DNA from: Lingula anatina
Taxonomy: Eukaryota > Animalia > Brachiopoda
Reading direction: 5' to 3'
NCBI GenBank assembly: GCA_051362555.1
Contig: CM120644.1
Span: forward strand, 5,898,954-5,962,953
Length of the DNA stretch: 64,000 bases
Within the stretch, counting starts at the first letter, position 1. Each line of letters begins with the position of its first letter. The translations under genes were made by a program, and so were the position numbers. Below are positions 1-48,608 of the stretch, piece after piece. The notes beneath the pieces were generated by a model. The model was not told the origin of the DNA. It ran no database searches and was given only the letters and a program-made list of their open reading frames with translations.

Positions 1-171
1 ATTTGTGAGGATGAAGGACAGAGGAGCATTATGTAGTGTAATGGTAATAAGCAACAGTGTTTAGTAGAACATTTTCAGTATGGTCCCAGCAACCTTGAGT
101 AAAGATAAGGCATGGGGTTGATATTATAACATCTCATTAAGGTAGTGTATTTATTTTATTTGATTTTTCAG

Positions 172-1014
172 TTCCATGACTTGGCCCAGGTGATGTGCGA
201 GGCTCTAAAGGGGAAGGGTTACTGGGCAGACTTCATTGACCCTTCCAGTGGGAGACCAGTGAGTGAACTATGAAGTGTTCCTAAGTATAAAGATAATTCT
301 CTCTCTCTCTCTCTTTCTCTCTCCGCATTCAGAACGGTGGACTTACTAGTCCGTGGGTCAAATATGGCGACCTACTAAAAAGTTTGCTGTCTTATCCGCT
401 AATAGACACTGAATAGATTCCCCATGGGGAATATTTGACCCTCTGACTAGTTTGTCCACTGTTCTGAATGAGGCTTCTCTCTCCCTCTGCCTCTCTAGGG
501 GGACTTGGATTTAAAAGGCACATGCTGATGGAATATTTTCAAGGTGAACGCGTGAAAACTACAGTCGAACCTAAGATGAATTTATATAACATGTAGGTTC
601 TGTACTCTGGTCAACTTATTTTGGTACCTTGGTTAGTAAAATAACTTTATTTTATGAATATTTCAGTTAAAACATACCAATTATACATGTGCATTGAATA
701 TTTCTGTCGTATTTTGTTTAAAAATATATATTCAATATTCCGGTCAAATTTTCTTTCAGTACTATGGAGACTTCACCAACGCGACTTTATTCGAGACGGA
801 CGAGCGCTACAAACACTTCGGTTTCGACATTGATGACGCTGGATGCTGTAAGGTGATCTCGCACCCGCTGTGGGGAACCCGGGTTTTCGTGGGATGTCTA
901 TTCACCAACGCCCCCAGTGACGACCCAATACACAAGTCTATGCTGATGGAGCTAAAGACACTGGAAGAGAAAGAGCCCGTGATGGCGCCAGATGAGCCAC
1001 CGGCTAAGACTTAA
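172..1014 (+). CDS. MMADHC: Cobalamin trafficking protein CblD (MMADHC), last two coding exons; gene starts upstream of the window
   Basis: Exon 172-258 (ttttcag|...CCA|gtgagt) encodes [29 protein letters not shown]. Exon 760-1014 (tttcag|) encodes [52 protein letters not shown]...stop. The join is phase 0. [27 protein letters not shown] and LWGT match the MMADHC C-terminus as I know it. Confidence 0.93.
323..473. mobile_element. Small intronic MITE (~150 bp) in a (CT)n tract
   Basis: Left end CCGCATTCAGAACGGTGGACTTACTAGTCCGTGGGTCAAATAT is an imperfect inverted repeat of the right end ATATTTGACCCTCTGACTAGTTTGTCCACTGTTCTGAATGAGG. It shares CCGCATTC and AAATATGGCG with the MITE at 25189-25490. 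Confidence 0.7.
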
Positions 1015-3083
1015 AATATTGAAAAAAAACTGTTGGAAGTTAAAAGCGGACTTTGTATGGTGTTAGGTATTGTGCTAGTTGACATTATGTGGAGCTAAGC
1101 TTAAAGTTTATTTTTGTTGAAATAATTCAACCTTGCATTCCCCTCCTTTTATTTTCAATAATGAAAATTGACTGAAAAATGGGGTGAGGGATAAATAAGC
1201 TTGTAAATGTCCTATGATGATCATAAAAAGTGAATATGAAGTCAAAAAACACTTATTTACAGGACTGAACAGTGACGAAATATCAAAGAGGAGAGTAACA
1301 AAAAGATTTGAAAGGAAAGCCAATCAAACATGTTTAACATATTGTATTGGTATTGTATAAAAAGATTTGCGTTTGACTTTGTCAAATTTCGCTGTTCTTT
1401 CAATCGTTCGCGGAGGCAGGTATGAAATAAATTACAATGACAGATTATTTGACTCTGAACAACAAAGAGATGACGACAGCAAAGTTAAAAAGATCGTCGC
1501 ATCGTCAGGGTTACAGAAAGTGTTCACAATGTTACATTAGCGCTATTTTCTTTTAAATTGCCATCTCGGCGTTGGTACATATAGCTCTATTACATGACAG
1601 GGTGGCAACCAATTTGGGGGGAGGGGGGAGGGGGGGTAACACATGATTATCACTATATATATATATGTGTGTCTGAAAAGACCTAATAATTTAATTGGAT
1701 TTTTGATATGAAATCTTTCTCACCGTATTTATCCAGCTGTGGGGAGGGGGGGGGGGGCAGCGTAATAATTTTACCATATATATTAATAATTCTTTGAGAA
1801 GTTCTGATAATGTACATTGGGTTTTTGATACGAATTTTTTTTCACTGTATTTACCCAGCTTCTACAGCATCTATGGTTTCTCAGCGTATTCGGGCATCTT
1901 TGAAAAATAACCTAGATTTCTGTTCTCTCAAATGATTGGGTTCTATAATTGTGCTAAAATGAGAACATGGATTGTGCCAGAAGCATTTCTTAACGGTTTT
2001 ATCTGAATTAGATATAAGCGGTATCAACTAAGGACAAAATGGAATTCCTAATCTAAATTTTTACATCACACGGTGTACAATAAATCTATGTTCGTTTGTT
2101 ATAATGGTTTTTTTGTGTGATGTTTTGAAATCGCATCATATTTGTCTTTAGAAGAAATGTCCTCAAGTAAGTCGTATTGCGGTTCAAGATGAGTATCGTT
2201 TCTGTATAAAAAAGCAAATTTGATGACTTTCGAATCATTGAACGGATTTCTTGAATAAAACTTATTTAAAAGTGTTTGCGTCTTTTAGAATACATGTTAC
2301 AACTGGTACGATTCGATATGTTTTACGCCGAGATGTACGTGCCTTTATTATTATTATTTGTTGCTCATTTAGAAAATTGGTATCAAAAGATGTTATCTGA
2401 CATTTTTCATGGAATGGAATTATGAGTTCTTAAAAGCCGAATCCAATTGTTCACAGTCCTGTAATAAGTGGTAGCTAAGGCCTACATATTGTATAGTTGG
2501 CTTGAATTGTCATCTTCGTGCTTGGTAATACATAACACCTCGTCTTCATGTGAACGTCGATCTAGTAATGAAAATGCGTTGATGTGATACTTGGATGAAC
2601 GTGATCGCCGTTAGCGTGTTGTGAAACTCCCTTTACACAAGAGCCCAATCAATGTACGCCGTTTGGGAACAGGTGCTTTAATTTTCTAAATGTAACATTG
2701 ATGTCTAGTAGGAAGAGTGGATAAAATTTAATTTCTGGATTCTGTGCACGATCCACAGGATCGAATACTGCTGTTTGCTGGCAGAGGAATCTGTTATCAA
2801 ATACGTGTTTGGTGTTCACCATATGGTTGTTTACGCTGTTGTTCTACTTATTGTTGCCATCATTTCATCTTATTCAATCTCTCAGCCCTGCGACTCATCA
2901 CAATGCACGAAATACACAAAAAAGCATTTTGAAATGAAATGACTATTACATGTTAAAGAAAAACATCAAATTGGCAGTTATCTTAGTTCTGATTCGTTTT
3001 TAAGAATAGATTCCAAGCCATTGCTCAACGACAGAAATTCGATAAGTTTAAAGATGCTTGTGTTAAAACCCCCATAGTCAAAC

Positions 3084-3797
3084 CTAGATATTTTGATACG
3101 TTGCTTTACTTGTGCTATCATCCGGAGCAGCCGGATCCTTGCAGTCTTCAGCTTGCTCAATTCGAATTTCTGGAATATCACTTCGACAAAAAGTGACCTC
3201 AGAGGTTGGGATGTGGACATTGGCGTAGCCGTAGGTCTGAACATTTTGGTACAGCGAGGTGGTTTCTTTTGAGGATTTGGCTGTAGAGGGAAACTCTATG
3301 TATTCCCCTCCCAGGTTTTCAGCGGTCGATTTTGAAGCCACGTCTGGTCCTAAGTCGAGATAAGTATAGGACTCGCTGGACAAATCTAAATACAGCGGAT
3401 CCTGACTGCTGGTCAGGTCCAAGTAAACCGGATGTGTTGTGTTGGCTAAATCCAGATAATCAGGGATAGCGCCCTTGGTTTCAAGACCTGTCGTGTTCAT
3501 AGCGTCGGTGATCATGTTGTCAATAACGGACTTCTTTGGTGACAAATTGTTAAATGCGGGATCATCTCCTGTCTCCAATGAGGTCTTTTTTGTCGCACTA
3601 GCTCTCCGGCGCCTTATAAAAAAGACCACAACAAAGGCAAAGAGGAGGCCCATAGAAATGGCGACAGGGAAACCGACGACGATGGACAGATCCGAGCTAT
3701 TGGCATTGGGCTCCACTGCGGCTAGTGTAGTTGAGGGATAAACGTCGGTAGTGGAAGGGGAGACTGTGATTAAAACAGGACCATCACGGCTTGACAT
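3084..3797 (-). CDS. Single-pass membrane protein with multi-tyrosine (ITAM-like/YxN) cytoplasmic tail, paralog 1 (237 aa)
   Basis: About 36-aa Ser/Thr-rich N-terminus with an NSS sequon, then a hydrophobic segment (LSIVVGFPVAISMGLLFAFVVVFFI) and RRRR. The tail has 4x YLDL, YIEF, YQNV, YANV and YQNI. Clearly homologous to 6432-7202. There is an in-frame TAG shortly upstream of the ATG and a candidate upstream exon with a GTGAGT donor at 4393. Confidence 0.8.
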   Translation of the reverse strand: MSSRDGPVLITVSPSTTDVYPSTTLAAVEPNANSSDLSIVVGFPVAISMGLLFAFVVVFFIRRRRASATKKTSLETGDDPAFNNLSPKKSVIDNMITDAMNTTGLETKGAIPDYLDLANTTHPVYLDLTSSQDPLYLDLSSESYTYLDLGPDVASKSTAENLGGEYIEFPSTAKSSKETTSLYQNVQTYGYANVHIPTSEVTFCRSDIPEIRIEQAEDCKDPAAPDDSTSKATYQNI

Positions 3798-5102
3798 TGC
3801 ACCGTAGCTGTTATCCTAGTTCTAAAGGTACAAATTGTTACATGTAGCTGTGTTTATCTTATTGCTGTTAAATATATATACTTATACTATGCCATCAAAA
3901 ACTGTCATCCCTACTGCATTTATGTTCACTAGTTTAAGGGTACCATGAGATTTATTTTACTTTTACAGAACATCGACTAGGCAACCGATCATCTTGTACA
4001 TTGTCGATAAGTGTAGCTATAGTAGAACTTTGTGCTACATGTACTTAGTGCTACCATTGAAATACCTCAACACTGTTTTTTAAATATGCGGCCCCTAAGT
4101 AAGAGGGATACAATTTTTACCAGCCGGTAACGTAGGAGGGACTTTTGATCAGCCGAACTGAAGAAAAATACTTCGTTTCACGCTTATAAAATATTCATGT
4201 TAAAAAGGCCGAACGACTTTGTCTGCTGTTTAAAAGAAACACACCTACCTCCCGTGCTTGTAGCGTAGAGTTATTGGTCCCATGCATATAACTAAAAGTA
4301 TTAAGTAAGTAATATATGTCAGATTTTGATTCAGATTTCATTCACGTAGTAATTAAAACCCTCATTGCAACAGCTGCATGTGTATACACTCACTTCTGAC
4401 GTAATACAAACTCTTCCCTACTGCCCGTGCTCATAACTAATGCGCCATCTTTCATAATAGTTTTCAAATATCAGTACAAATCAACAATCCTACTGCGAGT
4501 GATGCCAAATGTCCATTAAAACGGCGTCTTTGTATCATAAAAAGCGAAGAGTTGGGTAGGCCGGAAAATGTGAAATGTACTAACTGGTAGACGTGTACAC
4601 TTATAAAGGCGTGTCTTATTGTCTGCACTTGAAAAACTATTACCCAAATATGCCATGAATGTCATTGTTATTAGCAAGGGCATCAGTGTGATCTAGTATT
4701 TGGCGGTGTTTCCGGGAGGGAATATGATATCAATTTATGTAACATGAACCAGAGCAATGCAATCACAAAAGGGTGTTAGATACATTATAAGACCTACAAT
4801 TGACAAGCAGTTATTGTCAAAGTAGCAAATCGGTTTCACATCGTTTTATTGAAATTAAAAAGCTAGCATTTGGTTTTCAGAGAACGAAATATATATGTGC
4901 TTCATATTTGAAGCAAGTGAATTCAGCTTGAAAACCAGAGCAAAATACCTTAGCTTTTATTATATATATAATAAGTTGTAATCCTAATAATTTTACCTGT
5001 AAACAGCACTGAGACGCTAGTGTAGTGCGGTTTTAAGAAATAAATATTATTATTATTATTATTATTAAGATAGCAAAATAAAGCATCTTCACAGTTAACT
5101 TA

Positions 5103-6488
5103 CACACACTGGACAAAAGAAGTGTCACCCCCTACCTCAGAGTAATAAAAGTAGGCAGATCTTGGGTACTTACAATGCCTGGTCTACTTATAATGTGACT
5201 AATGAGTATAAAACCGCTATACCATGGAATTGTATTGTTGGTCTTGTACATGTACAGCAAATCTTATTCCTGTCTTCCTCCAATATGGCAAGATACAGGC
5301 AATTATCTAACGGTTATAGGTGCAAGTTATTAACCTGAAGAGGCGGAATATAAGCAATGTCAGAATATCGATACAATTGAATTGTTCAGTCAGAACCGTG
5401 CAGAGGGTCTGGTCTCGGTATAGAAACACTGGATCAAGAGACAAATTGCCTCTGATGGGTCGTCCAAGAAAAAATACTGGCCGTGAAGACCGACGACTGA
5501 TTTTGATGTCCAGGTTGTCAAAGTTCGACACTGCTTGTCAGTTGACAACACAGTGGAACAATTTCACACATAAGAATGTGTCTGTGAAAATTGCTAGGCG
5601 TCGGTTACATGCTCTGAGAGTGTACAGCAGGGTAGCAAGACTGAAACATCTTATATCGTTACAAAACAGGCAACGTAGAGTAAACTAGGGTCAACAGGAT
5701 CTGGAACTGGACATTTCATGACAATTGGTCCTATATATTTTTTTCTGATGAGTGTCGTTTGGTCTGACCTCTGATGACAGACGGGTAAAATGCTGGCAAA
5801 CTGCTGGTAAAGCATTTGAACCACATGCACTGAATTTTCGAACCCGGAGCAGCATATTCATCATGGTGTTGGACTGCATCAGCATCCATGGCTTGGGCGA
5901 ATTGATAGTGGTTAATGGAAACATGAATCACTAGAAATATATCGATGTTTTGGAGTCAGGCTTGCTACCATCTATTACTAACATGTTTGGTGACAGGAAT
6001 TATTCATTTGTTCACCAGGATGACAATGCTCCTTGTCACAGGCCCAGAGCAGTTGATGATTGGTTTGACCAACAGGACATTCGCAGGGTGATGTGGCCTG
6101 CCCAGAGTCCGGATGCAAACATAATAGAAAATGTGTGGAATGATATGTCAAAACTTTTCACAAATGCCCGTCTAACCAGCAGAGAAACTCTGTTATATTC
6201 AGTGTTTCATGCTTGGGCCAGCATAAGCCCTGAACGCATCAGACAATTACATTAAACCTTGCTTCGTAGACTGGCACCTATTATTAGGTCACGTGGCTAT
6301 GCCACTAAGTACTAATTTTGGACTTGAAACTGCATATTTTGGTAGAATGTATATTTTGTTCTCATTTTGTGATTTTTTGTGAAATTTGATGTTAATAAAA
6401 TGATACCAGGAGCATATCATTCCACAGTCATTTATCTCCCCCATAGTATTGGCTCAGTAGGGGTGACACTTCTTTTGTCCAGTGTGTG
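5103..6488 (+). mobile_element. Tc1-family (DD34E-type) DNA transposon, full length but decayed
   Basis: TIRs CACACACTGGACAAAAGAAGTGTCACCCC at both ends, flanked by TA (5101-5102 and 6489-6490). Transposase remnants run from ATG 5285 to TAA 6315: GRPRK HTH linker, FSDE, QDDNAPCH, WPAQSPDANIIENVW. They are broken by frameshifts and stops (5688, 5934, 6255). Confidence 0.93.
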
Positions 6489-7202
6489 TAGATTGTTTTG
6501 GTAAGTGGCTTCACTGGTACTAGCATCCGGGGCAGCCGGACCCTTGCAGTCTTTAGCTTGTTCAATTCGAATTTCTGGAATATCACTTCGACAAAAAGTG
6601 ACCTCAGAGTTTGGGATGTCGACATTGGCGTAGCCGTGGGGCTGAACATTTTGGTACACCAAGGTGGTTTCTCTTGGGGGTTTGACTGTGGAGGGAAACT
6701 CTATGTATTCCCCTCCAAGGTTTTCAGCGGCCGTTTTTGAAGCCACGTTTGGTCCTAAGTCGAGATAAGTATGGGACTCGCTGGACAAATCTAAATACAG
6801 CGGATCCTGATTGCCGGTCAGGTCCAAGTAAACCGGATGTGTTGTGTTGGCTAAATCCAGATAATCAGGGATAGCGCCCTTGGTTTCAAGACCTGTCGTT
6901 TTCATAGCGTTAGCGATCACTTCGTCATCAATGGACTTCTTTGGTGACAAATTGTTGAATGTGTGATCATCTCCTGTCTCCAATGAGGTCTTTTTTGTCG
7001 CACTAGCTCTTCGGCGCCTTATAACGAAGACCACAACAAAGGCAAAGAGGAGACCCAATAACAATGCGACAGGGACACCGACGACGATGGAGAGAACCGT
7101 GTTATTGGCATTGGGATCGACTGCGGCAATTGTAGATGAGGGGTCAGCTACTGTAGTGGAAGGGGTGTTAGTAATAAGAACTATGGGGTCCATTGTTGCC
7201 AT
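6432..7202 (-). CDS. Single-pass membrane protein with multi-tyrosine tail, paralog 2 (256 aa; last 18 aa derive from the Tc1 end)
   Basis: Same architecture as 3084-3797: S/T-rich N-terminus with an NNT sequon, TM, RRRR, 4x YLDL, YIEF, YQNV, YANV, YQNN. An acceptor tttttacatctag lies just upstream of the ATG. A candidate 5'UTR exon ends at a GTAGGT donor at 7748. Confidence 0.8.
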   Translation of the reverse strand: MATMDPIVLITNTPSTTVADPSSTIAAVDPNANNTVLSIVVGVPVALLLGLLFAFVVVFVIRRRRASATKKTSLETGDDHTFNNLSPKKSIDDEVIANAMKTTGLETKGAIPDYLDLANTTHPVYLDLTGNQDPLYLDLSSESHTYLDLGPNVASKTAAENLGGEYIEFPSTVKPPRETTLVYQNVQPHGYANVDIPNSEVTFCRSDIPEIRIEQAKDCKGPAAPDASTSEATYQNNLHTLDKRSVTPTEPILWGR

Positions 7203-7964
7203 TGCGCTGACCTAGATGTAAAAATACTTAAGGTCAGCTGTATATTTAACTGCATGTACAAACTTGTATATTGGGAAGGAGATGATGCGTAAAACTGCCC
7301 TAAATCATAACTGGAAGACGGGAGGAATCAGTTATGTTAAAATTATGTTGCTGCTTCTATTTCTAGGATTATACTTTCTGAAAAATAATTTTCTTCTTCA
7401 AGCACATTTTCACAAAGTGTACGTATTAGAAAAATCTGAGAGACATTGTCAACTGTTTTAAAACGAGCATCCCAGCCGACACATACAGGCCGTCATCATA
7501 ACGTTACTATAATGTTGTTTATTCACATAAACGTCATGCTAACGTTACAATGTCGTTCTGTGTTTGCTGGGATATCTCCATTGTTATTAAGGATCAGTGA
7601 GTACTTTAATGGAGATGATTTTTATTTATTTATTTTTATTTAAACATTTAAAACTGTTATTACCAACTGATATTTGTCGAATTTCGAGTTAAATTCCATT
7701 CAATTTTTAAAAGATTCCGCCTCTCCTGACAGCTTGCTGCGCACCTACCTCTGACGTGATACAATCTTCAAAACTGCTTCATCTCAAAAACGAAAACACC
7801 AACTCTCATACTTTTTCTCTTTTTGCCGTAACAATTCAACAATGCTTCTAGAAATGATGCCAAATGAATCTTCAAATGTATCTTCGTTACAGAAAAATGG
7901 AGTGTTTCAACAGACAAGAAATGTTCGTAAATATGTACACACGTTCGTTGGTGACCTGTTCTCT

Positions 7965-8265: not shown

Positions 8266-9174
8266 ATGTGTACAGTGTATGGTTCATCGCCCATGATGAA
8301 TGGAACTAAAGAAACAAACGAGCGTAATGACTCGAAAACATCTCAGTCAACGAAAAGACTTCACTCGGAACTCTCAAACTCCAGTGGCGATGAATCTCAA
8401 CTCATTATGCAAGAAATGCTAGAAATCAAAACTGAATTAAAACAAATAATAAAAGACGAGGTGGGCGGAATAAAAGCTATGGTAGACGTGATGGTTAAAG
8501 TCTTGAAAAAAGCCATGGAAAAGCGGTTTTTAGAAATGGAAATGAAATTCGACGTGAGATTCGGAAGACTGAAAGAGGGATACGATCACTTGTCAACTGA
8601 AAACCAACTATTGAAAGAGCAGATTATGGACAATAAAAGAGAAATTACAAGGTTAGCAAAAACAGCAGAGAAAGCTGGCAACATGTCCAAAGAAGCTCAA
8701 ATCAATGCCAACTACAATGAGCAATACTCCCGAAAAAACAACATCAAGATCTACGGAGTGAAAGAGGAGACATGGTCGGCATGTTGTCCAACTGCTACAG
8801 ACGGAAACGGGTGTACGGGTGACCAGTGAAGAGATCGTTGCCGTTCACAGGATACCTGGAAAGCGAGGACAGGAAAGACCAATACTACTGAAAGTTAAGA
8901 ACACTGATGTGAAAGCACGGATTATGAAAAACGTGCAGTACTCAGGAAATCGGGAAAGAATATGAAACTTTCAGACGATGTAACCAAACGTAACATGGAG
9001 CTTTTACACAGACTAAATGAGAGTCAGCTAATAGAACAAGCGTGGTACTTTAACGGGAGCGTCTATGGCAAACCAAAAAACACTGATGACAAAATAAAAT
9101 TCGACATATTTGACATCATTGACGAAAAAATAAAAAAGAAAAACTATAAATTAAATGCAAAAGACTTATTATAA
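8266..9174 (+). pseudogene. LINE ORF1 remnant (frameshifted)
   Basis: ORFs 8266-8829 and 8962-9174 are joined by an intervening frame reading EEIVAVHRIPGKRGQERPILLKV, as is typical of ORF1 in CR1/L2-type elements. Confidence 0.75.
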
Positions 9175-9488
9175 ACTGTACAGGTACATCTTTCTATCTG
9201 ACGATGGTATATAATCAGGACTAAACTGATTATGATGACTTTTGTGTGTAATGTTGTAAGTGAAGCGTTGCATGTGCTTCTGTATATTTATTCATTTTGT
9301 TTCTTATCCACTCTACCAAGCCAGTTCTCATTCGACTGCTTGGCTGTTGCTATATACTATGCACATCCGCTTCCTTTTCCCCCTTTTTTTTCCTCTGACT
9401 ATGAACTTTAGCTTTCCAAAATATAACCTAAGAGGACTGAGGGGAGGGCATGGCTGGGGACGGGGGTACTTGGTGATCATTCACATGA

Positions 9489-12400
9489 ATGGGGATTAGT
9501 TTAGGTCAGTGGAGGGTCGCAATTGGCCATTTTTATTGTGTTATACATAAGCTATCGTCTGGATCATGCAAACTGACACCCGTCACACTTTACCTGATAT
9601 CAAAAGTGATTCTGTTCCTAGTAACTATCATCATCATGCTTGAGATCATTCTACTATCTGGAGATATCCACCCCAACCCAGGGCCGTACTCGATCCCCCT
9701 TACCATACTTTTCTCAAACATAAGGAGTCTTAGCGCGGTCGCTGATGAACGCTTCGAGAGCCTTAAAATAAGAATTAAAAATGCTAAAGCTGACGTAGTT
9801 GGGCTTTGCGAAGCAGGAAACATCTGTAGGATAGATCGGAGTGAAAAGTATAATATCGAAGGCTTTCACGTACCCGTATTTTCTAATAAAGGCCGAGGGC
9901 TTATCTTGTATATGTGCGATGATATAATGTATAAAGAACGAACTGATCTTCAATTGGATGGGTTGGACTGCCTATGGGTGGAGCTGCGAGTGAAGCATAA
10001 AACTCTTCTTTACGGTGTATTCTACAGATCTCCTAATCAATCAGCCCAACAGAGGAACATTTTCATGTCCCTTCTATCCGAATGCCTTGAGAAAACAAGA
10101 CGCTCTCGGCATGACGGAATCATAATAAATGGCGATTTTAATGCTCATAACAGACAATGGTTTCAGAGGGAGGTGATGACGTGCCAGGTCGAATGTTAAG
10201 CGATATATTTAACGAAAATGGCCTTGACCAGTTAATAAATGAGCCAACCCGAATCCAAGGAAGCTCTGTCTCATGTATTGACCTGACTGTGACTGACATT
10301 CCCGGCCTGGTACTAAGATCTGTGGAAGCACCGATTGGACGCACAGACCATGCTACATTAGTGACCTCCATAGACATAACTCTCTGTAAGCATTCACCTT
10401 ACTATAGAACTATATGGAAGTACGACCATGCAAACCCTGAAGGACTAAAAACCGAAATAACCCAGTTCGACTGGGATGGCATGTTTAAACTCGAGTCCGA
10501 TGTCCACCTGCTGACTAAAAAAATTATCGAAACACTTATGTCCATATTTGAAAAACATATCCCAAGAAAACATAGTAAAGTACGTGGCAATGAGAACACA
10601 TGGTACAATGACAAAATTTAACATGAATTAAATAGAAAGAGAAAATTGTACCAACGTATAAAACTTAACCCGTCGCAAGTAAACATCGCAAGCTATGTTG
10701 CCCAAATTAACCTGGTGAAGCAGTAAAAATCTGAAACAAAAGACTCTTATTATAAAAGCCTAATCGAATCACTTGAAGCTAAAACAGATAGTAAGAAACA
10801 ATATTGGCCAACACTGAAAAAACTTCTGGGTAATAAATTCAATCGGTCAACACCAGTGATTGGAAATGTAAATACCGGTAATATTGCTAATTCTGACGAA
10901 GAAAAAGCTGAGGTCTTCCTAAATCACTTTGGCAAAAGCTACCATTCTGATAATCTAACCTGTGATACAAATATTTCTTTCCCACAAAGAACAGATGTTA
11001 TTTTAACCGATCTCGACACAACACCCGAAGAAATAAGCTGTATAATAAATAGCGTGGACTCATCCAAGGCTTACGGACCAGACGGTATAACAGTAAGAAT
11101 GTTAAAATTATGCAGTATTTCCATTGCTTATCCGCTATGCACCCTCTTTAACTTGATACTGCAAACCGGCGTCTTTCCAGACATATAGAAAGAGGCATAT
11201 ATATGCCCAGTGCACAAGAAAGGCAGCAAAACTGACATAGAAAACTATAGACCTATCTCGTTGTTAAGCGTTATATCTAAGGTCCTAGAGCGGATCATAT
11301 ATACGAGAATGATTAGGCATGTTATGGACAATAAACTTCTCTATGACAGACAATCGGGTTTCCTGAGTGGACACAGCACAGAATATCAATTGCTATCGAT
11401 TGATATTCTGATTAGGGACAATTTCAGAAATGGTCTTGATACTAGAGGTATTTTCCTCGATTTTGCTGCTGCATTTGACAGCGTACCTCATAGTCTTTTA
11501 TTGCTGAAACTTATATCCCATGGTTTTAGAGGTAAATTGCACTCTCTTTTGGCCTCTTATCTGAACAATAGGAAAATCAGAGTGCGCATAAACGGTACCC
11601 TTTCAAAGGTCTTCGAGACAAACTTCATCAATACCAGTGTTCCGCAAGGCAGTATACTCGGCCCGCTTCTGTATATAAACGACCTACCTGATGGTCTTAT
11701 CTCACACTGCGTCATATGTGCTGATGATACTTAGATTTTTCTCCCGTCTACCCCGGACAACAGAAAAGCTCATGACATTCTCTAGTCTGATATCTCATAC
11801 CTTGAAGCATGGTCAGTGAAGTGGAAATTATTTTTTAAACCAAAAAAGTGCAATGAAGTGATTTTTACTACGAAAATAGAAAATGTAGGAAAGTACAGTC
11901 CACTTATTCTATGCAACACGGCTATAACACAGAAAAAATACCACAAACACATTGGGTTTATTATTGATCATAAACTTGGCTGTTCCGAGCATATTACGTA
12001 TACTTTAAGCAAGGCCCAAAGTGCACTAAATCCTTTAAAATCGCTTTCTAAGACTTTACGATCTACAGTAAGCATCTTAACATACTTTACAATGCGTACA
12101 TTTCTCCTTTGCTTGATTATTGCGATGTTCTCTATAGCACTGCGTCTCTACATAACCTATCAAAGCTATCCTCCCTCCAGTATCAAGCTGGCCTTAATAT
12201 ACTGGGGGCCCTTCCTGGCTCAAATCGCTGTAAAGTACTGAAACAGCTGAACTGGGTTTCACTAGAGGCACGTAGGAGAAACCATGCGAAAAAAATCATG
12301 TTCAATATCCACAATCAACTAGCACCTTCCAATGTCTCTACCTATTTCATCCCGTTTAGAAATAAATCCATGCTACCACTACGGACAACATCCAAAAGAG

Positions 12401-13641
12401 ACTACATAATTCCCTCTAAATTCACATACAAAGGTCCTGAACACTTTTTGTTGACAAGCTGGGATGAACTTAACACCATTCAAAAAAAAATCTTCCTTCT
12501 GCACCCTCCCTCAAGTATAACCTTAGAAACGAAACCTTCCCAGCAACAATGTCCACCACCCATCTGAAGCTTCCGAGACAAAATGAAACAAGGCAGCAAA
12601 GCTGTCAAATGTACAGACAAAAAGCAGGAAATAACAATGCACAAAATAGGCTACTGTCAAATCTGGTGCAAAAGTACATTATGCTTAACTGCATATTCAA
12701 CATCAAATTTTAATTATGCTCAACAGGTAATACCAATGTAAGTAAAATGTGTAACAAGCATAAGGCTTCAGGCACATGGAACTTCAAAGTCACACCTTGA
12801 AAATGCCAAAATGTAAACAAGACAGCACTGTTCTGCAATGGGTTTATTTCCATTTTTAACACATTTTTAACATAAAACAAAATAAACGTTTTACTGCCAT
12901 TTTTATTAGATCAACTAAGAAAATTGATGAGATGGGAAAAATATCAACAGAAAGGTGTTAAATGTCCAATTTCCTCCATTCTGAGATTCTGAACATAGTG
13001 GATTATTGAATCTGACAATCTGCAATGATATGAGTTTATTTCCATTTTTGACACTTTATTACACAATACACGATAACAAGTTTACCAACTTTTTTACATA
13101 ATCAACTAACAATGTTATAAAGATGCAGGAAATGTCAAACAAACACTTTTATGTATCTTATTAGTTCAATAATGAGACTGTTAACATGCCTAAGAATTAA
13201 ACGGTATTCCACTTATCGTGTTATCGCTGAGTGCACGGCGACGGCGACGACGGCCTACGGCGACGGCGACGGCGACGACAGACGCAGGTGACGGCTATAT
13301 GTACAGACACATCTGTGTCTGTACATAAAAATCCTAAATAAGGCCCGGGTCGATTTGTTATTTAGAGCCCAACTATATGACCATTACTGGACAGCTATGG
13401 CTTCTCCCAACTGTTTATGTGGGAAACTCGAAACTATCCGACATTTTTTCTTTCACTGAAACAAAGGATATATCGTGTTCTCTACGAATCTGTTGAAGAT
13501 ATACTTGGTGTAAATTATGCATATTTCAGAACCCAACTAGATAAGATATCCCTCTTCCTACATGGCCATAAAACACTAACATCTGGACAAAACGACAAAA
13601 TTTTCGAAATAGTGTCGGATTTCTTAATCAAAAATGTCTGA
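9489..13641 (+). pseudogene. LINE ORF2 remnant (2A-like motif, APE, RT, C-terminal Cys/His)
   Basis: Consecutive fragments 9489-10199, 10157-10621, 10856-11188, 11210-11734, 11816-12567 and ~13331-13641. The RT YADD motif reads CADD and is followed almost immediately by a stop. Confidence 0.88.
12587..13330 (-). mobile_element. Helentron-associated non-autonomous element (HINE/DINE-1-like) inserted in LINE ORF2
   Basis: On the minus strand: T-run, sub-terminal ATGTACAGACA with an adjacent inverted copy TGTCTGTACAT, a (CGTCGC)n-type microsatellite, a 3' TGTCTGTACAT, then a stem-loop GACAGC-TTT-GCTGCC and TTGTTT. LINE coding sequence resumes across the insertion (HLKLPRQNE / ILNKARVDLLFRAQLY). 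Confidence 0.7.
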
Positions 13642-22310: not shown

Positions 22311-23969
22311 ATGGATCTGTCACACCTAAGTCATCAAAGAAAAACCTCCTACGTAACAGGTAATTAAGAAGTTTTACATGTACAGTGCATGGAGAGATGT
22401 AAGGAATTTTCATTTTATCTTGTTTTGTGCTTTCTATTTTTGTATTTTTTATTTAGTCTTATTCCTTAATGACTTAACTGTCTTCTTTTACATGTTGCCA
22501 TCATGGTGTTCATTTTTAATTGATGTCGCTTGCTTTTTAATTTTACTCATTCATAATTCCTGTTTATTATTCAGCTCCTAAATGAGTAAGTTCGATAATG
22601 TATGTGATGACGGGTACATATTATCAGTATATGGAACAAAATTCAGCAAATGAAGGCTTACTCAACGCACTGTTCTACTCCTTTTCAGGATTAACACTCC
22701 TGCTAACAGCCGTATGGAGTGCACAAGACGTCCATGGCCACGCATTCAGAACATGTAGTGGCAAATTGTTTAAGAACCTAAAGCTAGACTCGTCCCACGT
22801 TCTGTTCACGGCACCAGCGCGGTCTATGGCGGAATGTACACAGAAGTGCCTTGATGAAGAAGATTGTATGTCCGTGCAGTTTTGCCACGATGGCGGGAAG
22901 AAAATGTGTTCTCTGAATAGTCTCACTAGTAATTCCGTGGCCACCATGACGGAAGATACTGCCTGTAGTTTCACTGACTGCGTGAAGGAAGAGGTAATGT
23001 TTGTGATATTCGGAAATACATTTTGATCTGTTTTAATTTTATTGTTCAGATGCATGAGTGCATGATTGTATGCTCGTATATATATATATTGTCTGTTTGT
23101 TTCAAGGTTAAAAAATCTAAAAAAAAAAACACTCTGAATCCTCACTTTCAAATAATGTAAGAACAATTTTGCAACCAATTTCTAAGTTATTGAGAAATTA
23201 TTTTGTGGTACTTAAAATGGCAAGTAATAAAAACGTTATTTTTTATCCCAAATTTTAGCTGATTAATATTAGGATTAAATAGATTATCAAAGTTAAATAA
23301 TTTTTCTAAATGTGGATACAGGAAATTTTATCCTCGTAATGCATTACTTTGCTTCTTGAAACAGTTTTTTTAAACGAATTGAGAGTTGCGGTGCTGATGG
23401 TTGTTGGGGGTGGGGGTGGGGGGTGGGGGTGGGGGGTTGTCCTGGTGTCTTCTACTGGTATTCAGCGACAAGGTTTGACTTATTGCCACAGATCATCGCA
23501 TCCAAAGTAAACATTCACTGAAATCAGTACGTGTGATAATTATGTTTAGTTTAGTTGTACACAATTTTAATATGTTATACTTTAATTTGTCCATCTTCTC
23601 TTTGTCTGTGCATTTTTTCTTTAACTGTTGAATTATTGATGTTATTCGTGTTGTACAGCATACATGCTTGCATTAAAACATTAAACTCAGTTTTTCATAA
23701 TATATATCATAAACTGTTTGTCAGCCTCAACTTTTCCCTTGTATCATCCCAAGTCCAGCCACACTGTTCAAGAGAACAACAAACACAGTTGCTTTACTTT
23801 ACAGGTGTGCGTGGCACATGGAAAATGTGAGAACGGAGGCACCTGCGTGAAAACGATTCCTGATCCCGAAATCTTCCCCGAAGCCGACCCAGCCTACCCG
23901 ACCTTCTCCTGTGACTGTGCCAGCGGCTACGCCGGCACTCGCTGCGAAGTTGTAATACCCCAGGGCTGA
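22311..23969 (+). CDS. Small secreted PAN/apple + EGF-like domain protein (~172 aa, 3 exons)
   Basis: Exons 22311-22359, 22689-22993 and 23805-23969, all GT-AG, phases 1 and 0, total 519 nt. Signal-like GLTLLLTAVWSA, PAN pattern (SMAECTQKCLDEEDCMSVQF...CSLN), EGF pattern (CVAHGKCENGGTC...FSCDCASGYAGTRCE). Confidence 0.8.
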
Positions 23970-29951: not shown

Positions 29952-31740
29952 ATGACACAAAAGTTAAGAACAAACCAGTTAGTCGGATTTGTAGTAAGTA
30001 TAATCGTACTGCTACTGATTGTGAGCTACGCCTTACAGCAAAGAAACACTGTATTGGTTGAGGAACAGTTCGATACAAGGAACGTTCAGGTAAAACTGTT
30101 TAAGGAATGATGCATCTTGCTGCCATATTTCATTTGAGCTATAGCTTTTGCTTCAAATTTCAAATAAATAAAAACACGCTTCTCGATCTAGCTAAAAAAA
30201 TAAATAACAAATATGCAAATTTAGTAATTGCCCTTTTCAAAGGGACGAAACAACACATGAAGACATACCTGTACGTAAAAATAAGTAAATACAGTTAACG
30301 AAAAATAGAACTGAGAGAAAGAAATACAGTGACATTTCAAGGATTGCTCAGACAGTTATCCTGTTGCTGCATTAGGATAAGTATCGGTGATCATTGGAAT
30401 AGGGTTGAACCTGTATGTGGAATAATTTTGCTTTTTGCATTTTCTTTGGATGGAATAATTTTGCATTTTCTATTTCGTTCAGGTACACCAATACAACAGA
30501 GCCAGACAGGATCGATTGACCGATGGTAATTTTCAAATGATTTTGTGACAAAATTGAATCACCATCACATAAGCATAAAACTGCATTCTGTTGATGATTT
30601 AAAAGGGGGAGCAGAAGACGTTCGTTCCATAAAATCAACTTTTTCAAAGCACAGAAAAAAATCTAAATAACATCCTAGAAGAGTTCACAAGAAAAATAGA
30701 TAAATAAATAAAATAATAATAAATAAAATCAGTACAGTGACATTGCCGACTCGAAATATATAGAGTACATTACCAGGCAGATGCATTAGTTCTCAACAGG
30801 AAGAAGATGTAATTAACATGAAGTTACATACGTTTTGCTCCCGTTTTCAGCACTGGCAAAGATGGCTCACGCCGGGGAGGATATAGACAGAGTGCATTCC
30901 TTTCCACTCTGTGGTCAAATTTGCAATTTTTCCATGCACAAGAGAAAAGAAGACCCTTTCTTGAGAAAAGACTTTAACTGTAAGGATATGTTTCTCAGAT
31001 TGAAGAATCCGCCCGGGAAAGTTTTCAAGCCGCCCCTGAAGAAGCCACCTCCAGAGCTGCTTTTGGATTTCACACAGAATGGCGGTATGAATTTGAGTTC
31101 TATGTACTTTGATGGCTCACGTCAGGGTCCAAAGGTAACATTTACTCCAAAACAAATCAAAACTCTTCTAACTAATGATAAAGATAAAAACATTGGTTCA
31201 TATGGAGCAGAGAGCAATGGCTTCAAACAGGTTCTCTACAGATACAAAGATCAATTAAAAGAAAAGACAGGGATTGTCATCGGAAGTCAAAGTCCTTGGC
31301 TGGAAGTCATGCTATTAAATCTTGGCGTGAAACACGTGACAACTGTTGATTACAACGCTGTTTTCTTCGACCACCCACAGCTGTCTTTCGAGTTTATGTC
31401 AGATTTAGCGGATAAAATCACCAAGAACCAATCGCTCCTAATGGATTTTGCTGCTTCGTTTTCTTCTTTGGAACACTCTGGCCTTGGTCGCTATGGAGAC
31501 CCCATCAATCCACACGGTGACCTGGAGGCAGCAGCTCAAATATGGTGCATGCTTAAGCCTGGTGCGTTGTTTTATCTGGGTATACCAGTCAATTTTGGCA
31601 CCTCGGAGGGCTCTTTGGTATTTAACGCACACCGTATATATGGAGAAGCTCGGATTGAACAGATCACTGCAAATTATGAGATACTTGAACGCAAGCCGGT
31701 TGGAATGCATGGTGTCTTAGTCTTGAAAAAGACGCTCTGA
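29952..31740 (+). CDS. DUF268-family methyltransferase-like type II membrane protein, copy 1 (3 exons)
   Basis: Exon 29952-30089 (MTQKLRTNQLVGFVVSIIVLLLIVSYAL, signal anchor), exon 30483-30525, exon 30851-31740, all GT-AG and in frame. Motifs GIVIGSQSPWLE, VTTVDY, SFSSLEHSGLGRYGDPINP.GD, CMLKPG and FNAHRIYG are characteristic of DUF268. Confidence 0.85.
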
Positions 31741-33438: not shown

Positions 33439-35253
33439 ATGACACAAAGATTAAGAACAAACCGGTTAGTAGGATTTGTAGTAAGTATAATCGTACTGCT
33501 ACTGATTCTGCGCTATGCCTTACAGCAAAGAAACACTGTATTGGTTGAGGAACAGTTCGATACAAGGAACGCTCAGGTAAAACTGTTTAGGGTATGATGC
33601 ATCTTGCTGCCATATTTCATTTGAGCTATAGTTTTTGCTTCGAATTTCAAATGAATAAAAACGTGCTTCTCGGTCAAACTAAAAAAAAAAATAATAAAAT
33701 AAAAATATGCAAAATATTTTAGTAATTGCACTGTTCAAAGGGACGAAACTACACATGAACCCATACCTGTATGTAAAAAATAAGTAAATGCAGTTAACGA
33801 AAAATAGAACTGAGAGAAGGAAAGAGAGTGAACCTGTTCGGACAATTATCCTGTTACTGCAATGAGATAAGTAAGATATATATATATAAGGTGATTATTG
33901 CAATAGGGTTGAAATTGTACGTGGAATATTTTAGCATTTTGCATTTTCTGTGGATGGATTGGTTTTGCATTTTCTATTTCGTTAAGGTACACCAATACAG
34001 CAAAGCCAGACAGGATCAATTGACCGATGGTATTTATCAAATCATTTTGTGGAAAAATTGAATCACCATCACATAAGCATAAAGTCGCATTCTGTTGATA
34101 AACTGAACGGGTAGCAGAAGACGCTCATTCCATAAAATCAACTTTTTCAGAGCACAGAAAAATCTAATCAACATCCTAGAAGAGTTCACATAAATAAATA
34201 AATAAATAAATAAATAAAATAATAAAAAAAGTATAAACAGTATAAATCAGTATATTGACATTGGTGACTCGAAATATATGCAGTACATTACCAGATGGAT
34301 AAGTCCTCCACAGAATGAAGATATAATTCACATGAAGTAACATACATTTTTTCCCGTGTTTAGAACTGACAACGATGAATTACACCGGGGAGAATGTAGA
34401 AAGAGTGCATTCCCTCCCACCCTGCGGTCAAATTTGCAATTTTTCCATGCACAAGAGAAAAGAAGATCCTTTCTTGAGAAAAGACTTCAACTGTAAGGAT
34501 ACATTTCTCAGATTGAAGAATCCGCCAGGTAAAGTCTTCAAACCACCCCTGAAAGAGCCGCCACCAGAGCTGTTTCTGGATTTCACACAGAATGGCGGTT
34601 TGAATTTGAGTTCTTTCTACTATGATGACTCACGTCAGGGTCGAAAGGTAACATTTACTCCAAAACAAATTAAAACTCTTCTAACCAAAGATAAAGATGA
34701 AAATATTGGCTCATATGGAGCAGAGAGCAATGGCTTCAAACAGGTTCTCTACAGATACAAAGATCAATTAAAAGAAAAGACAGGGATTGTCATCGGAAGT
34801 CAAAGTCCTTGGCTGGAAGTCATGCTATTAAATCTTGGCGTGAAACACGTGACAACTGTTGATTACAATCCAGTTTTCTTTAACCACCCACAGCTGTCTT
34901 TCGAGTTGATGTCAGATTTAGCGGATAAAATCACCAAGAACCAATCGCTCCTAATGGATTTTGCTGCTTCGTTTTCTTCTTTGATACATTCTGGCCTTGG
35001 TCGCTATGGGGACCCCATCAATCCACACGGTGACCTGGAGGCAGCAGCTCAAATATGGTGCATGCTTAAGCCCGGTGCGTTGTTTTAGCTTGGTATACCA
35101 GTCAGCTTTGGCACTCCGGAGGGCTCTTTGGTATTCAACGCACATCGTATATATGGAGAAGCCCGAATTGAACAGATCACTGCAAATTACGAGATACTCG
35201 AACGCACGAGGGTTGGAGTGCATGGCGTCTTAGTCTTGAAAAAGGCGCTCTGA
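33439..35253 (+). pseudogene. DUF268 copy 2, probable pseudogene or null allele
   Basis: Exons 33439-33576, 33987-34029 and 34364-35253. Premature TAG at 35086-35088 (TAT in copy 1). SSLEHSG is changed to SSLIHSG. The frame stays open to the homologous TGA at 35251-35253. Confidence 0.78.
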
Positions 35254-39234: not shown

Positions 39235-40721
39235 ATGAAAATAAGATTGCCGTCTTTCACTCTCAAGGGCATTTTTGTGACCATCATACTGCTACTGGCT
39301 GTTAGCTTTATGGCTAAAAGGAGTAACACACAAGTGGATCGGAAAGAGGTAGGTGGTATCAACTAATTTTTTTACGGGGGTAATCAGGATGAATCGATTG
39401 TAGAAAACACTGCACTCTTGCAGAGCTTTGTCTTCAAAGTCAACCTGTAAAGTCGTCTTGATCAGTCAGTAATTTAAGTTGTAATGAATGTTGAATTGTA
39501 CGTGAATGGACTGAAGAGTAAACAGTATTTTGCATTTACTTTCTCATTTAGACGTCAGCACCAAGAGTCTCGAACAGAAAAAATCCGGAAAATTCAGGTA
39601 TATATAAGTGATTTCTGATATATTATCTCTCTCTCTCTCTCTCTCTCTCTCTGACACAACAGAAGATTGTACAAACACTGTTCATGTTAGGGGGTGTCGG
39701 GGGGGGGGGGGGGTCCTGGCCCCCTTCAATTTCTGAAAAGATCACAACAATGGTCCCCTTTTGCAATAAGCAATTAAATATATATTTCATATTATATATT
39801 ATATTGATATATTTTATATTTTAAGTTTTGCAGACGAGAACGAACACGGCAGATGATGTCGCCGATGACACTAAATCTACCCCTCCCTGTGGCCAAATTT
39901 GCGACTATTCCATTCGAAAGAAAAGCGGTGATCATATCCTAAGAAAAGATTTCAATTGTCGGGATATATTCTTCAGGCTGAAGCATCCATCTGGACAAAC
40001 TTTCAAGCCACCTTTGAAAAACCCGCCTCCAGAGATGCTTCAAGATTTCACGCAAAATGGCACCTTGAAGTTGCATCTCCGGTACCTTGATGACTCCAAA
40101 AAACGCAATAAAACAAAGTTCACATCAGAAGATATCAAAAAGCTTCTAAAATTGGATAATGATCAAATAAAAATGGGCTCGTATGGAGAAGATAGCGACA
40201 GATTCAAAAAGATCCTCTACAGATACCAAGACGAATTAAAAGACAAGACAGGAATTGTCATAGGAAGTCAAAGTCCTTGGCTAGAAGTCATGCTATTAAA
40301 TCTTGGTGTGAAGCACGTGACAACTGTTGATTACAATCCAGTTTTCTTCGACCACCCACAACTGTCCTTCAAGTTAATGTCAGATACGGCGGACGAAATC
40401 ACCAACGATCCGTCGCGCCGAATGGACTTCGCCGTTTCGTTTTCTTCTTTGGAACACTCTGGCCTAGGTCGGTATGGAGACCCCATCAATCCATATGGCG
40501 ACCTTGAAGCCGCGGCCCAAGTCTGGTGTATGTTGAAGCCTGGTGCGTTGTTTTTGCTAGCAGTGCCCGGACGTCTTGGTAGCTGGGAAGGCACTTTGTA
40601 TTTCAACATGCACCGCGATTATGGTGGAGCTCGTTTAGAACAAATCGCTGCAAACTTTGAAGAACTAGAACGCGGGAAAACAAAAAAGCACATCGCGCTA
40701 GTTTTAAGAAAGCCCGTTTAA
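39235..40721 (+). CDS. DUF268-family methyltransferase-like type II membrane protein, copy 3 (diverged, intact)
   Basis: Exon 39235-39348 (MKIRLPSFTLKGIFVTIILLLAVSFMA...), exon 39552-39597, exon 39826-40721. Same intron phases (0, 1) as copy 1. SSLEHSGLGRYGDP is intact. Confidence 0.85.
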
Positions 40722-41240
40722 ATATTTACTGAGAAGATACTGGCGCTAAGTTTCATATTAGCCTTGCTTTTAAATATTACATAGATTTTCATGTTGATAT
40801 GGGGGCAGACAAACAGCAATGTATATACATAGACTATACTTGGTTTTAAAGGCTGTGGAATAGAAATGAACAGCATATGTTAAATGAGCCAGGCCAAGTG
40901 CTAATTATATGGGCTCGGAGCTCTACCATAAAAAGAGCGTGCGGGGATTTTTTAAAAAGTCAGAAACTGGAGTATCATACTGGATGATACTGATATGCTG
41001 GTATACATACTATTATATTATAAATACGGTGCAGTTCACAATTGGTAATGCACGCTCTAGCAGCTGAAGGGTCTGTCTTAATTTTTTAGTGTTGGGTTGT
41101 GGTCTATCTGTACTATCCAGCTAGAGAGTAAGTCAACAGTCATTTGATAATATGTCGATTGGGCAAGAGATATTCGTAATGTACTTCATTATGGGGTGAC
41201 CAAGTGTAATTTGCAGACCCTTGCCTCTTTCTTCCTTGTA

Positions 41241-41470
41241 CACACAATGGACAATAGAAGTGTCGCCACTACTGGACCAATACTTTGGGGGAGATAAATG
41301 ACTGTGGAATGATATACTCCTGGTATCATTTTATTAACGTCAAATTTCACACAAAAAATGTAGACCAGGCATTATGATTACTCAAGATCTGCCTACTTTG
41401 ATTATTGATTACTTGATTATTATTTGATTAATCTGATTCAGGGGGTGGCACTTCTATTGTCCATTGTGTG
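41241..41470 (-). mobile_element. 230-bp internally deleted derivative (MITE) of the Tc1 family at 5103-6488
   Basis: TA|CACACAATGGACAATAGAAGTGTCGCCAC...GGGGGTGGCACTTCTATTGTCCATTGTGTG|TA. The interior is the reverse complement of ~6370-6460 joined to ~5140-5187. Confidence 0.88.
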
Positions 41471-47008: not shown

Positions 47009-48608
47009 ATGTTTCTGACATCAGCTATTCTTCTCACAGCTCTGCAAAGCGCTTTGACAGTACCCGGTAAGTAGTGGGATTTACATTTTTTTATTGAGGT
47101 TTAAAGTTGTGTGTAAAATTTTATGAAGCTAAAATGTGTTTATTTTGGAGAGAGGGAAATCATAACATTCACACTGACAAGAAAAAATGATAAATTCATA
47201 ATTATAATAATGAATGAATAAGTAATGATAAGAAAATATATAATATATAACATAATGAAAATCGATTGTTGCCTTCAGTTTATTACCTGACCTGTAATTA
47301 TTTTTTACTATATCTATTCTCTGACTTAATTCAACTGCTTCAATTTCAGTTCGTCAATGCGACAGAAGCGGTAGACTGGGTCAGTTCATACCCGACGACA
47401 TGAACCCCTGCGTATACTACAGGTGCGAGTACCTGGGCACGCCCTACCAGAGGATGAGCGGCAAGATGTACTGCGAACAGCCCTACGTCGTCCCGCGGTC
47501 CTTTGGTGCCATACGACGGTTCCCAAGCCACAGTAACCCTTGCGTACTCTACAACCCAACACTGGCGTCGAGATGTATACGAGGGGTACAGGCGTGGAGT
47601 AGGTGGAGTAACTGGGGGCAGTGCACGAGGGACTGTGGGGTCGGTACCCAGAGGCGCACACGGGTGTGTCTGGGAGGACAGAGCTGTCCGGGACTCCTGG
47701 TGGAGAGCCGTTTGTGTAATATGCATCCATGTAAGTTGATTCACGTGTTTAGCCTTTTTTAGTTAGGTTCGTGTTCGGATAAGGGTGTATGCTTTTTATT
47801 CATTGTCCACTCAATTCATAGTCACTGACAGACATTTGAGGAACGTATTCATTGGATTGTTGTTGGCATAGCAGCAAAAAAAAAAAATAAATAAATAAAA
47901 TAAATAAATAAATAAAATAAATAAATAAAAAAATAAAAAATTAAAAAATATAATAATAATAATAAATAAATAAATAAATAAATAATATAGATAAATATTT
48001 TTTTTAAGTAGCGGAATAAAAGTCTTTCAAGTGAGACTTTATTTGCTCCAATTTTCCTCTCACGAAATTTGTAACTGCACATGAACCTGTGAATCTTAAA
48101 TACAGATCCAGATGTATTGTTAGTTCTTATCCCCAACTTATCTAACAACGTACCCATTTTGCAAGTCCAATCGTTTCTTTTACCTGTCATGTTATCATCT
48201 CATGTCTGCTCTATCGAGTTGGAATTATACCATGGCCGTCTCATTTAGATTTTATAGGGTCACTATTTCATAACAACTGATATCATATCTCGTGTTACAG
48301 GCTTTGGAGAGACGGTTGTTAAGGATTTTGACATCATGCTACAAGAAGACGACCATGCAACGTCATTCGTCACATCAGACTCGCAAGCGAGTGACGTAGA
48401 CACAACACTGTCCACAACCACCACACAAAAAGAGACTACAAGAACCTCCGCCACATCCATTGCTGAGTCTACGCAAGCTCCTTCTTTTGCTCCCACCGAA
48501 GGCAGTGGTGAAGCGACCGGAAGTGACGACACGTCGACTACCAACAGTGACGTCACACCCACTGACAATCTTACTGTTGTTGGGTCAACCACATCCAGTT
48601 TTCAATAA
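47009..48608 (+). CDS. Secreted protein A: signal peptide + CBM14-like Cys domain + TSP1 + acidic Thr/Ser-rich tail (248 aa)
   Basis: Exon 47009-47066 ([19 protein letters not shown]), exon 47350-47730, exon 48301-48608, phases 1/1, total 747 nt. TSP1 reads [25 protein letters not shown]. The mucin-like tail contains EGSGE. Confidence 0.82.

Follow-up and report, generated by a model that had tools for sequence, protein, structure and literature searches.

A 64,000-nucleotide stretch of the genome of the brachiopod Lingula anatina (assembly GCA_051362555.1, contig CM120644.1, positions 5,898,954 to 5,962,953; hereafter the window) contains, on its minus strand, a tandem pair of open reading frames (ORFs) for small predicted membrane proteins with tyrosine-rich tails. 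In both copies, the tail combines four stacked YLDL motifs at the spacing of the tyrosine-based activation motifs of immunoreceptors (ITAMs) with three YxN sites of the Grb2 type. Our tentative reading, to which we assign a probability of roughly 45%, is that each copy encodes a stand-alone, signal-less membrane scaffold, which would dock a Syk/Shark-type kinase through phosphorylated YLDL (pYLDL) and Grb2 through the YxN sites. Overall, this amounts to a well-supported motif prediction in one species.

Architecture of the two ORFs

The ORF of copy 1 (P0001, 237 amino acids) occupies positions 3084–3797 and that of copy 2 (P0002, 256 amino acids) positions 6432–7202, both on the minus strand. 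They are tandem paralogs and align without gaps over 236 residues, of which 186 are identical. The C-terminal 18 residues and the stop codon of copy 2 (6432–6488) are transposon-derived. Both proteins start with a 37-residue stalk containing 12 (copy 1) or 10 (copy 2) Ser/Thr residues and a single N-glycosylation sequon at N33, which is followed by a transmembrane (TM) segment at residues 38–61 (3615–3686 in copy 1, 7020–7091 in copy 2, both minus strand), the sequence RRRR, and the tyrosine-motif tail. The best 19-residue Kyte-Doolittle window reached 2.64 in copy 1 and 3.09 in copy 2, in each case at residue 43, and values elsewhere were at most 0.74; no N-terminal hydrophobic signal appeared in the hydropathy profile of either ORF. 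With one hydrophobic stretch, RRRR behind it and no leader, the signal-less single-pass architecture proposed in a preliminary description of this DNA was supported. The same applies to the lack of a juxtamembrane Cys pair and of a charged TM residue, as Cys occurs at residues 204 and 219 only in both ORFs, and neither TM segment contains D, E, K or R. A G-x3-A-x3-G-x3-A pattern is kept in both TM segments, and this small-residue zipper might permit TM dimerization. No Pfam family was matched at its cut-off by either ORF, and no enzymatic domain was found in the tail. AlphaFold2 yielded a mean predicted local distance difference test (pLDDT) score of 37.7, with the TM helix alone above 50, although low values from a two-row alignment are no proof of a disordered tail.

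Tyrosine motifs and their conservation

YLDL occurs in both copies at Y114, Y125, Y136 and Y146 with spacers of 7, 7 and 6 residues (3351–3458 in copy 1, 6756–6863 in copy 2, minus strand), and the three overlapping pairs match Yxx[IL]x6-8Yxx[IL]. Pro stands at position −2 in three of the four. The distal tail (3087–3302 and 6492–6707, minus strand) carries YIEF at 166, YQNV at 183, YANV at 191, PEIRIE at 209, and, at 234, YQNI in copy 1 or YQNN in copy 2. This is the series and spacing of tyrosine motifs that had been described before, including three Grb2-type YxN sites (Y183, Y191, Y234) in both copies. YQNV at 183 matches the immunoreceptor tyrosine-based inhibitory motif pattern as well. 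PEIRIE, present in both copies, fits a loose PxIxIT pattern of calcineurin docking sites, but 3,947 of 100,000 shuffled tails contained a similar pattern; the majority of PxIxIT consensus matches are reported as non-binding (10.1101/632547), and PEIRIE is a candidate calcineurin site in the sense of a weak lead.

When the 176-residue tail of copy 2 was shuffled 200,000 times, three ITAM-spaced pairs were never obtained, and at least one appeared in 2,677 shuffles. Three YxN sites were found in 2,158 shuffles, and all eight tyrosines fell inside motifs in 4. Internal duplication is the probable origin of the four YLDL, which are thus not mutually independent.

The strongest evidence came from the YLDL codons of copy 1, which differ by 23 nucleotides over their six pairwise comparisons, every difference being synonymous. 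The residues flanking the four motifs agree at just 4 of 36 positions, and all four YLDL were retained in none of 400,000 neutral simulations. Such synonymous-only divergence of the codons demonstrates long-standing past selection at the protein level. When the two copies are compared, none of the 31 motif positions differs, compared with 29 of the 144 remaining tail positions (Fisher p=0.003), and neutral simulation left all 31 intact in 32 of 20,000 runs. All eight motif tyrosines are common to both copies, whereas the non-motif tyrosines Y20, Y144 and Y189 of copy 1 are absent from copy 2. Both lines of evidence support selection on the tyrosine motifs. The overall ratio of nonsynonymous to synonymous substitution rates (dN/dS) was 0.61 (p=0.046), and 50 or fewer amino acid changes occurred in 113 of 20,000 neutral runs. 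Despite 89 substitutions between the copies, no indel has arisen over 236 codons.

Proposed function

In the proposed mechanism, a gene of two exons, the first of them non-coding, would give rise to a protein with N-out/C-in (type III) topology, as expected from the RRRR flank. The positive-inside rule underlies such N-out insertion. The cytoplasmic tail would be disordered, and in the vicinity of some activated receptor a Src-family kinase would prime it. The tandem SH2 domains of a presumed Lingula Syk/Shark kinase could then bind adjacent pYLDL pairs, and the bound kinase would spread phosphorylation to the three YxN sites, where Grb2-SOS would cross-link the trivalent tails so that clusters form, similar to the models for LAT, with Ras/ERK as the output. 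Because a ligand-binding domain and a charged TM residue are missing, the protein would serve as an amplifier beside a receptor and not as a receptor subunit, and its expression would be restricted or inducible.

The individual steps have precedents. An ITAM consensus of Yxx[I/L]x(6-9)Yxx[L/I] is given together with overlapping ITAMs in Hydractinia Alr tails (PMC9546547), and P-x-pY-x-x-hydrophobic is reported as the pattern of the ZAP70 N-SH2 domain (PMC3514216); the spacing of the YLDL motifs agrees with the former and the Pro at −2 in three of them with the latter. An oyster ITAM receptor is reported to recruit Syk, with ITAM-Syk-ERK signalling in haemocytes (PMC6994640), Syk homologs are described from molluscs and amphioxus (PMC13344425), and aggregation of trivalent LAT has been modelled (PMC3291652).

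The preliminary description had combined ITAM and PLC-gamma roles in one chain. The motifs and spacing for this are present; however, one set of four YLDL would have to serve both roles, which may be alternatives. In its most ambitious form, an independent one-chain "ITAM plus LAT" module would hold Syk/Shark on the stacked pYLDL, cluster through Grb2-SOS and bind calcineurin at PEIRIE, which we regard as doubtful. If true, kinase recruitment, amplification and calcium feedback would be compressed into one inducible gene, whereas vertebrate lymphocytes use several proteins.

Several observations weigh against the scaffold proposal. The strict, acid-prefixed ([DE]xx) ITAM consensus is satisfied by one of the three pairs, and ITAM spacing is automatic for any 11-residue repeat containing YxxL. 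Upstream ATGs are present in the predicted first exons (5 in copy 1, 2 in copy 2). Neither protein was found in a collection of 15 billion proteins, in which the neighbouring Lingula gene is present, and the evidence for conservation consists of two paralogs and no ortholog. RNA was surveyed in four of nine listed runs, for which 41.4 million records (about 6–25% of each run) were read at 92% likeness, and the depth was zero over 2537–4438 and 6975–7608 in all four, their tissue being unspecified. Expression, which had been proposed as a check, was thus not seen for copy 1, nor for copy 2 in its 5' part. Broad expression is made less likely by this, and the options left are silent genes, genes missing from the animals sampled, or expression of a restricted or inducible kind.

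The codon statistics add to these points. Outside the motifs, dN/dS of the tail was 0.88, an unbroken frame was kept in 1,235 of 20,000 neutral runs, the YLDL block showed zero synonymous differences between the copies, and without this block the motif changes were 0 of 15 versus 26 of 123 elsewhere (p=0.074). Selection at the present day is likely from these comparisons, but it falls short of proof because of the p-value without the YLDL block, the ratio outside the motifs and the frames left intact by chance. The YLDL block without synonymous change, the fall of dS from 0.63 for the stalk to about 0.12 for the tail, and the unmatched introns together suggest gene conversion between old duplicates. 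The coding exons (3091–3760 and 6496–7165) are 90% identical and the first exons 69%, and the introns gave no significant local match.

Alternatively, the same scaffold could act downstream of receptor tyrosine kinases, with YLDL as a repeated single-SH2 site (for PLC-gamma, like the FGFR tail, or of the Gab1 type), the YxN sites used as in FRS2, and the ITAM spacing as a by-product; the role would then not necessarily be immune. In Gab1, Y628 binds SHP2. This site has the same YLDL (PMC3637500), FGFR1 Y766 and FGFR3 Y760 likewise consist of pYLDL followed by a small residue, the FGFR1 motif being reported as a PLC-gamma1 binder, and FRS2 carries four Grb2 YxN sites (PMC3514216). The acidic prefix missing in two of the three YLDL pairs fits this alternative, and PEIRIE in both copies would suit a calcium branch. 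However, the tyrosine-to-tyrosine spacing of 11, 11 and 10 has been held while the linkers diverged fully, and the Pro at −2 agrees with what the ZAP70 N-SH2 domain prefers. Furthermore, an FGFR3 pYLDL peptide is reported to give no array signal with the PLC-gamma2 SH2 domains, with dissociation constants above 50 µM (N) and of 7.5 µM (C) (PMC3514216). We consider a place downstream of receptor tyrosine kinases, the main rival reading, unlikely.

Gene structure

A conserved block was found approximately 540 to 580 nucleotides upstream of each ORF. The two blocks (4392–4511 and 7747–7866) are homologous, with 69% identity over 122 nucleotides and an alignment score of 54, compared with at most 34 in 200 control stretches. 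Consensus donors sit at the same place in both, which predicts non-coding upstream exons at 4394–4511 in copy 1 (conserved part; donor GTGAGT at 4393, candidate acceptors ending at 3822 and 3816) and 7749–7866 in copy 2 (donor GTAGGT at 7748, acceptor ending at 7212), both on the minus strand. Frameshifting indels separate the blocks, in-frame stops lie 8 and 10 codons before the donor, phase 0 of the blocks contains no Met, and TATA-like boxes are located at 4605 and 7971, about 210–220 nucleotides above the donor. The block is therefore probably a non-coding first exon, in line with the preliminary description; it could instead be a conserved regulatory element. In both copies, its best-conserved part (4394–4410 and 7749–7765, minus strand), immediately ahead of the donor, contains TGACGT(A/G)A when read on the plus strand, which we take to be near the CRE/ATF site consensus and which could be an inducible element.

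Two coding variants of the upstream exon were considered and set aside. Translated in phase 0, the two upstream exons terminate in CITSE, but the stretch contains two substitutions only, the frame is closed 8–10 codons upstream, and a pyrimidine tract is missing there from copy 1, so a coding micro-exon was not adopted. A Met-started extension of copy 1 by 24 amino acids via a phase-2 splice is possible, yet this extension is hydrophilic, and nothing corresponds to it in copy 2.

The gene model bears directly on the question of whether the ORFs are instead a duplicated or alternative last exon of a larger ITAM receptor, whose ectodomain exons would lie further upstream. A phase-0 acceptor stands shortly before the ATG, the frame being open through CTAG at 3816 and 7212, an S/T-rich stalk ahead of the TM segment is typical for receptors, and the known invertebrate ITAM proteins compared here are receptors with ectodomains. 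Moreover, TSP1 and WxxW exons are found on the same strand at 51–57 kb. To cover such exons, all 410 segments of the minus strand upstream of 7212 that run for 36 or more amino acids without a stop were screened against Pfam (E≤0.001), with a plus-strand EGF domain recovered as positive control. Only four segments matched, all past 51 kb (two TSP1, WxxW, PML_C). Between 7.3 and 51 kb, none of the 322 minus-strand segments matched a Pfam domain, although shorter or unrecognised exons escape this screen; the same stretch contains several plus-strand genes. Each copy also has its own homologous exon-like block with a closed frame and a TATA-like box, and no longer database protein carries the tail. 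The larger-receptor explanation is quite improbable. Given that an upstream exon, homologous between the copies and probably non-coding, precedes each ORF, and that the next 44 kb upstream gave no Pfam domain on the minus strand, stand-alone genes are likely.

Expression and transposon insertion

No spliced joints for the predicted introns were among those listed from the four RNA runs. For comparison, an intron in the neighbouring MMADHC gene was covered by 340 spliced reads at joint 258–760 across the same runs. RNA depth was present in the bin 6341–6974, together with a joint 5243–6374 and loose ends at 6490; at this bin size, we infer reads from a transposon end. Reads joining 5243 to 6374 suggest that internally deleted copies of this transposon exist elsewhere.

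The transposon is a decayed Tc1/mariner element at 5101–6490 on the plus strand, with 31-nucleotide perfect inverted arms including the TA (5101–5131 and 6460–6490) and fragments of a transposase (helix-turn-helix and DDE). It was inserted at a TA two codons upstream of the former stop codon of copy 2. The old 3' flank of copy 2 now lies beyond the element, where approximately 20 nucleotides are homologous to the flank of copy 1, with two AATAAA signals; within the element, neither AATAAA nor ATTAAA was found on the minus strand. Copy 2 may have been weakened by the transposon, which cut off its 3' untranslated region (UTR). An end fragment of the same Tc1 family is located at 41239–41356 (92% over 118 nucleotides).

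Taken together with the zero reads in all four runs, the absence from annotated and assembled proteins, the dN/dS values both overall and outside the motifs, and a decayed long interspersed nuclear element (LINE) directly upstream, this insertion without a polyadenylation signal on the coding strand raises the question of whether the pair is a remnant. Both copies would then be silent or decaying relics of a once functional adaptor or receptor tail, with at least copy 2 disabled by the transposon. On the other hand, both frames are intact, without an indel among the 89 substitutions, while the non-coding block has several, and all motifs are retained in both copies. In addition, the missing reads come from runs of unspecified tissue, each of them read in small part. 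We give the remnant explanation a low probability.

YxxPhi is a sorting signal bound by adaptor complexes. YLDL, YIEF, YQNV and YANV each fit it, but unphosphorylated sorting signals on a trafficking or decoy membrane protein are a very remote explanation, since Asn at +2, the Grb2 signature, is retained at three sites and sorting requires neither eight motifs nor fixed spacing.

Comparison with known adaptors

Homologs were sought in several collections. A word-index search of the protein collection at near and longer lengths returned no homolog and no longer protein with the tail, phmmer on 1.84 billion representatives gave no match at E≤0.001, exact look-up of both proteins found no entry, and viral and metagenome contigs contained no relative. 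Among PDB sequences there was one match only (E 1.7). Conservation in related species, the other check proposed for this DNA, thus found no support, as no ortholog turned up in the databases searched. Overall, the gene pair is real, likely selected and apparently lineage-restricted, and it would probably function as a transmembrane adaptor with an ITAM array built in. In the ESM Atlas, vaccinia A36 (OPG164), opalin and SCIMP emerged as look-alikes with feature scores of 0.82–0.86, and scores below 0.9 are leads only, below the level of evidence. All three have a short N-terminus, one TM segment and an unstructured tail, which is a likeness of architecture and not of kinship.

Among described proteins, the nearest analogue by sequence features is LAX (LAX1), with the other non-palmitoylated transmembrane adaptor proteins (TRAPs), and it is closer than LAT. 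It shares the short ectodomain, the single TM segment, the non-enzymatic tail, several Grb2 YxN sites and the lack of CxxC (PMC3342071). In contrast, LAX has approximately 400 amino acids and a YxxM motif, the account cited mentions no stacked YxxL array, and there is no detectable sequence similarity. LAT resembles the pair in length (233 versus 237 amino acids), single TM segment and three Grb2 sites, but is described with a 4-residue ectodomain, two Cys that are palmitoylated and only one PLC-gamma site, YLVV, as well as being a Syk/ZAP-70 substrate (PMC3342071). The Lingula proteins have a 37-residue stalk, no juxtamembrane CxxC, and four YLDL instead of YLVV, and by these features are not LAT orthologs. 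The label "LAT-like" used earlier is accordingly apt for the three YxN sites, the single TM segment and the length, but overstated with regard to CxxC, YLVV and the 4-residue ectodomain. The convergence with LAT that had been suspected fits the lack of detectable homology, with the LAT family absent among Pfam matches up to E 0.1 and among the matches in the 1.84 billion representatives.

DAP12, FcR-gamma and CD3-zeta share the short ectodomain and YxxL-x6-8-YxxL pairs in the tail. Chains of the DAP12 type have a charged TM residue and a Cys near the membrane and form disulfide-linked dimers. In the Lingula proteins, by contrast, the TM segment is uncharged, no Cys precedes residue 204, the pairs overlap, and three YxN sites are added. 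Among invertebrate ITAM proteins, Draper of Drosophila has an ectodomain. Like the Lingula pair, Draper, oyster CgIgR and Hydractinia Alr carry ITAMs in the tail, overlapping in some Alr, and Syk recruitment is reported for CgIgR; however, CgIgR and Alr are described with Ig-type ectodomains (PMC9546547, PMC6994640), whereas no ectodomain was found for the pair in the ORFs or among Pfam domains on the minus strand between 7.3 and 51 kb.

By the definition of a transmembrane adaptor in PMC3342071, the two proteins would, with the gene model predicted, count as such on sequence features. Transmembrane adaptors are described there from vertebrate leukocytes, and a literature search (titles and abstract openings, with subscription journals mostly outside its scope) returned no invertebrate TRAP and no Lingula ITAM protein. 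If confirmed, an ectodomain-less scaffold with ITAM and YxN motifs in a lophotrochozoan would represent a convergent architecture built from short motifs. It would also offer a compact construct for asking if Syk activation and LAT-type clustering require nothing more than overlapping ITAMs together with trivalent Grb2 sites. Genes of this kind are overlooked by homology-based annotation.

Genomic context

The pair is preceded in the window by the 3' part of MMADHC (cblD; 1–2500, plus strand), which has an intron at 259–759 and RNA depth up to about 2.5 kb and converges on copy 1. Its exon 760–1011 is 100% identical to the Lingula anatina MMADHC protein, the next match reaching 74%. In the presumed 3' UTR of copy 1, a short antisense frame (2712–2939, plus strand) with a hydrophobic, signal-like stretch and zero RNA depth is probably due to chance.

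Directly upstream of copy 2, the decayed LINE-like element (8266–12564, plus strand) contains ORF1-like, endonuclease and reverse-transcriptase-like fragments in several frames, and further repeats are found upstream of the pair. On the plus strand, the exons at 22598–23966 encode a hydrophobic leader together with one PAN and one EGF domain. They are followed by three tandem DUF268-like ORFs on the same strand (30862–31740, 34375–35229 and 40035–40721), with the Pfam comparison covering the first; in this region, two copies of a 2.5-kb unit share 87% identity, and the second ORF is cut short. TSP1 exons that are paralogous and lie on both strands, and a WxxW/mucin exon, occupy 47325–47762 (plus), 51046–51732 (minus), 55926–56372 (minus) and 57093–57356 (minus), and a Thr-rich exon lies at 48258–48605 (plus). 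The lone PML_C match at 52761–52946 (minus strand, E 2e-6) is perhaps a transposon or gene fragment.

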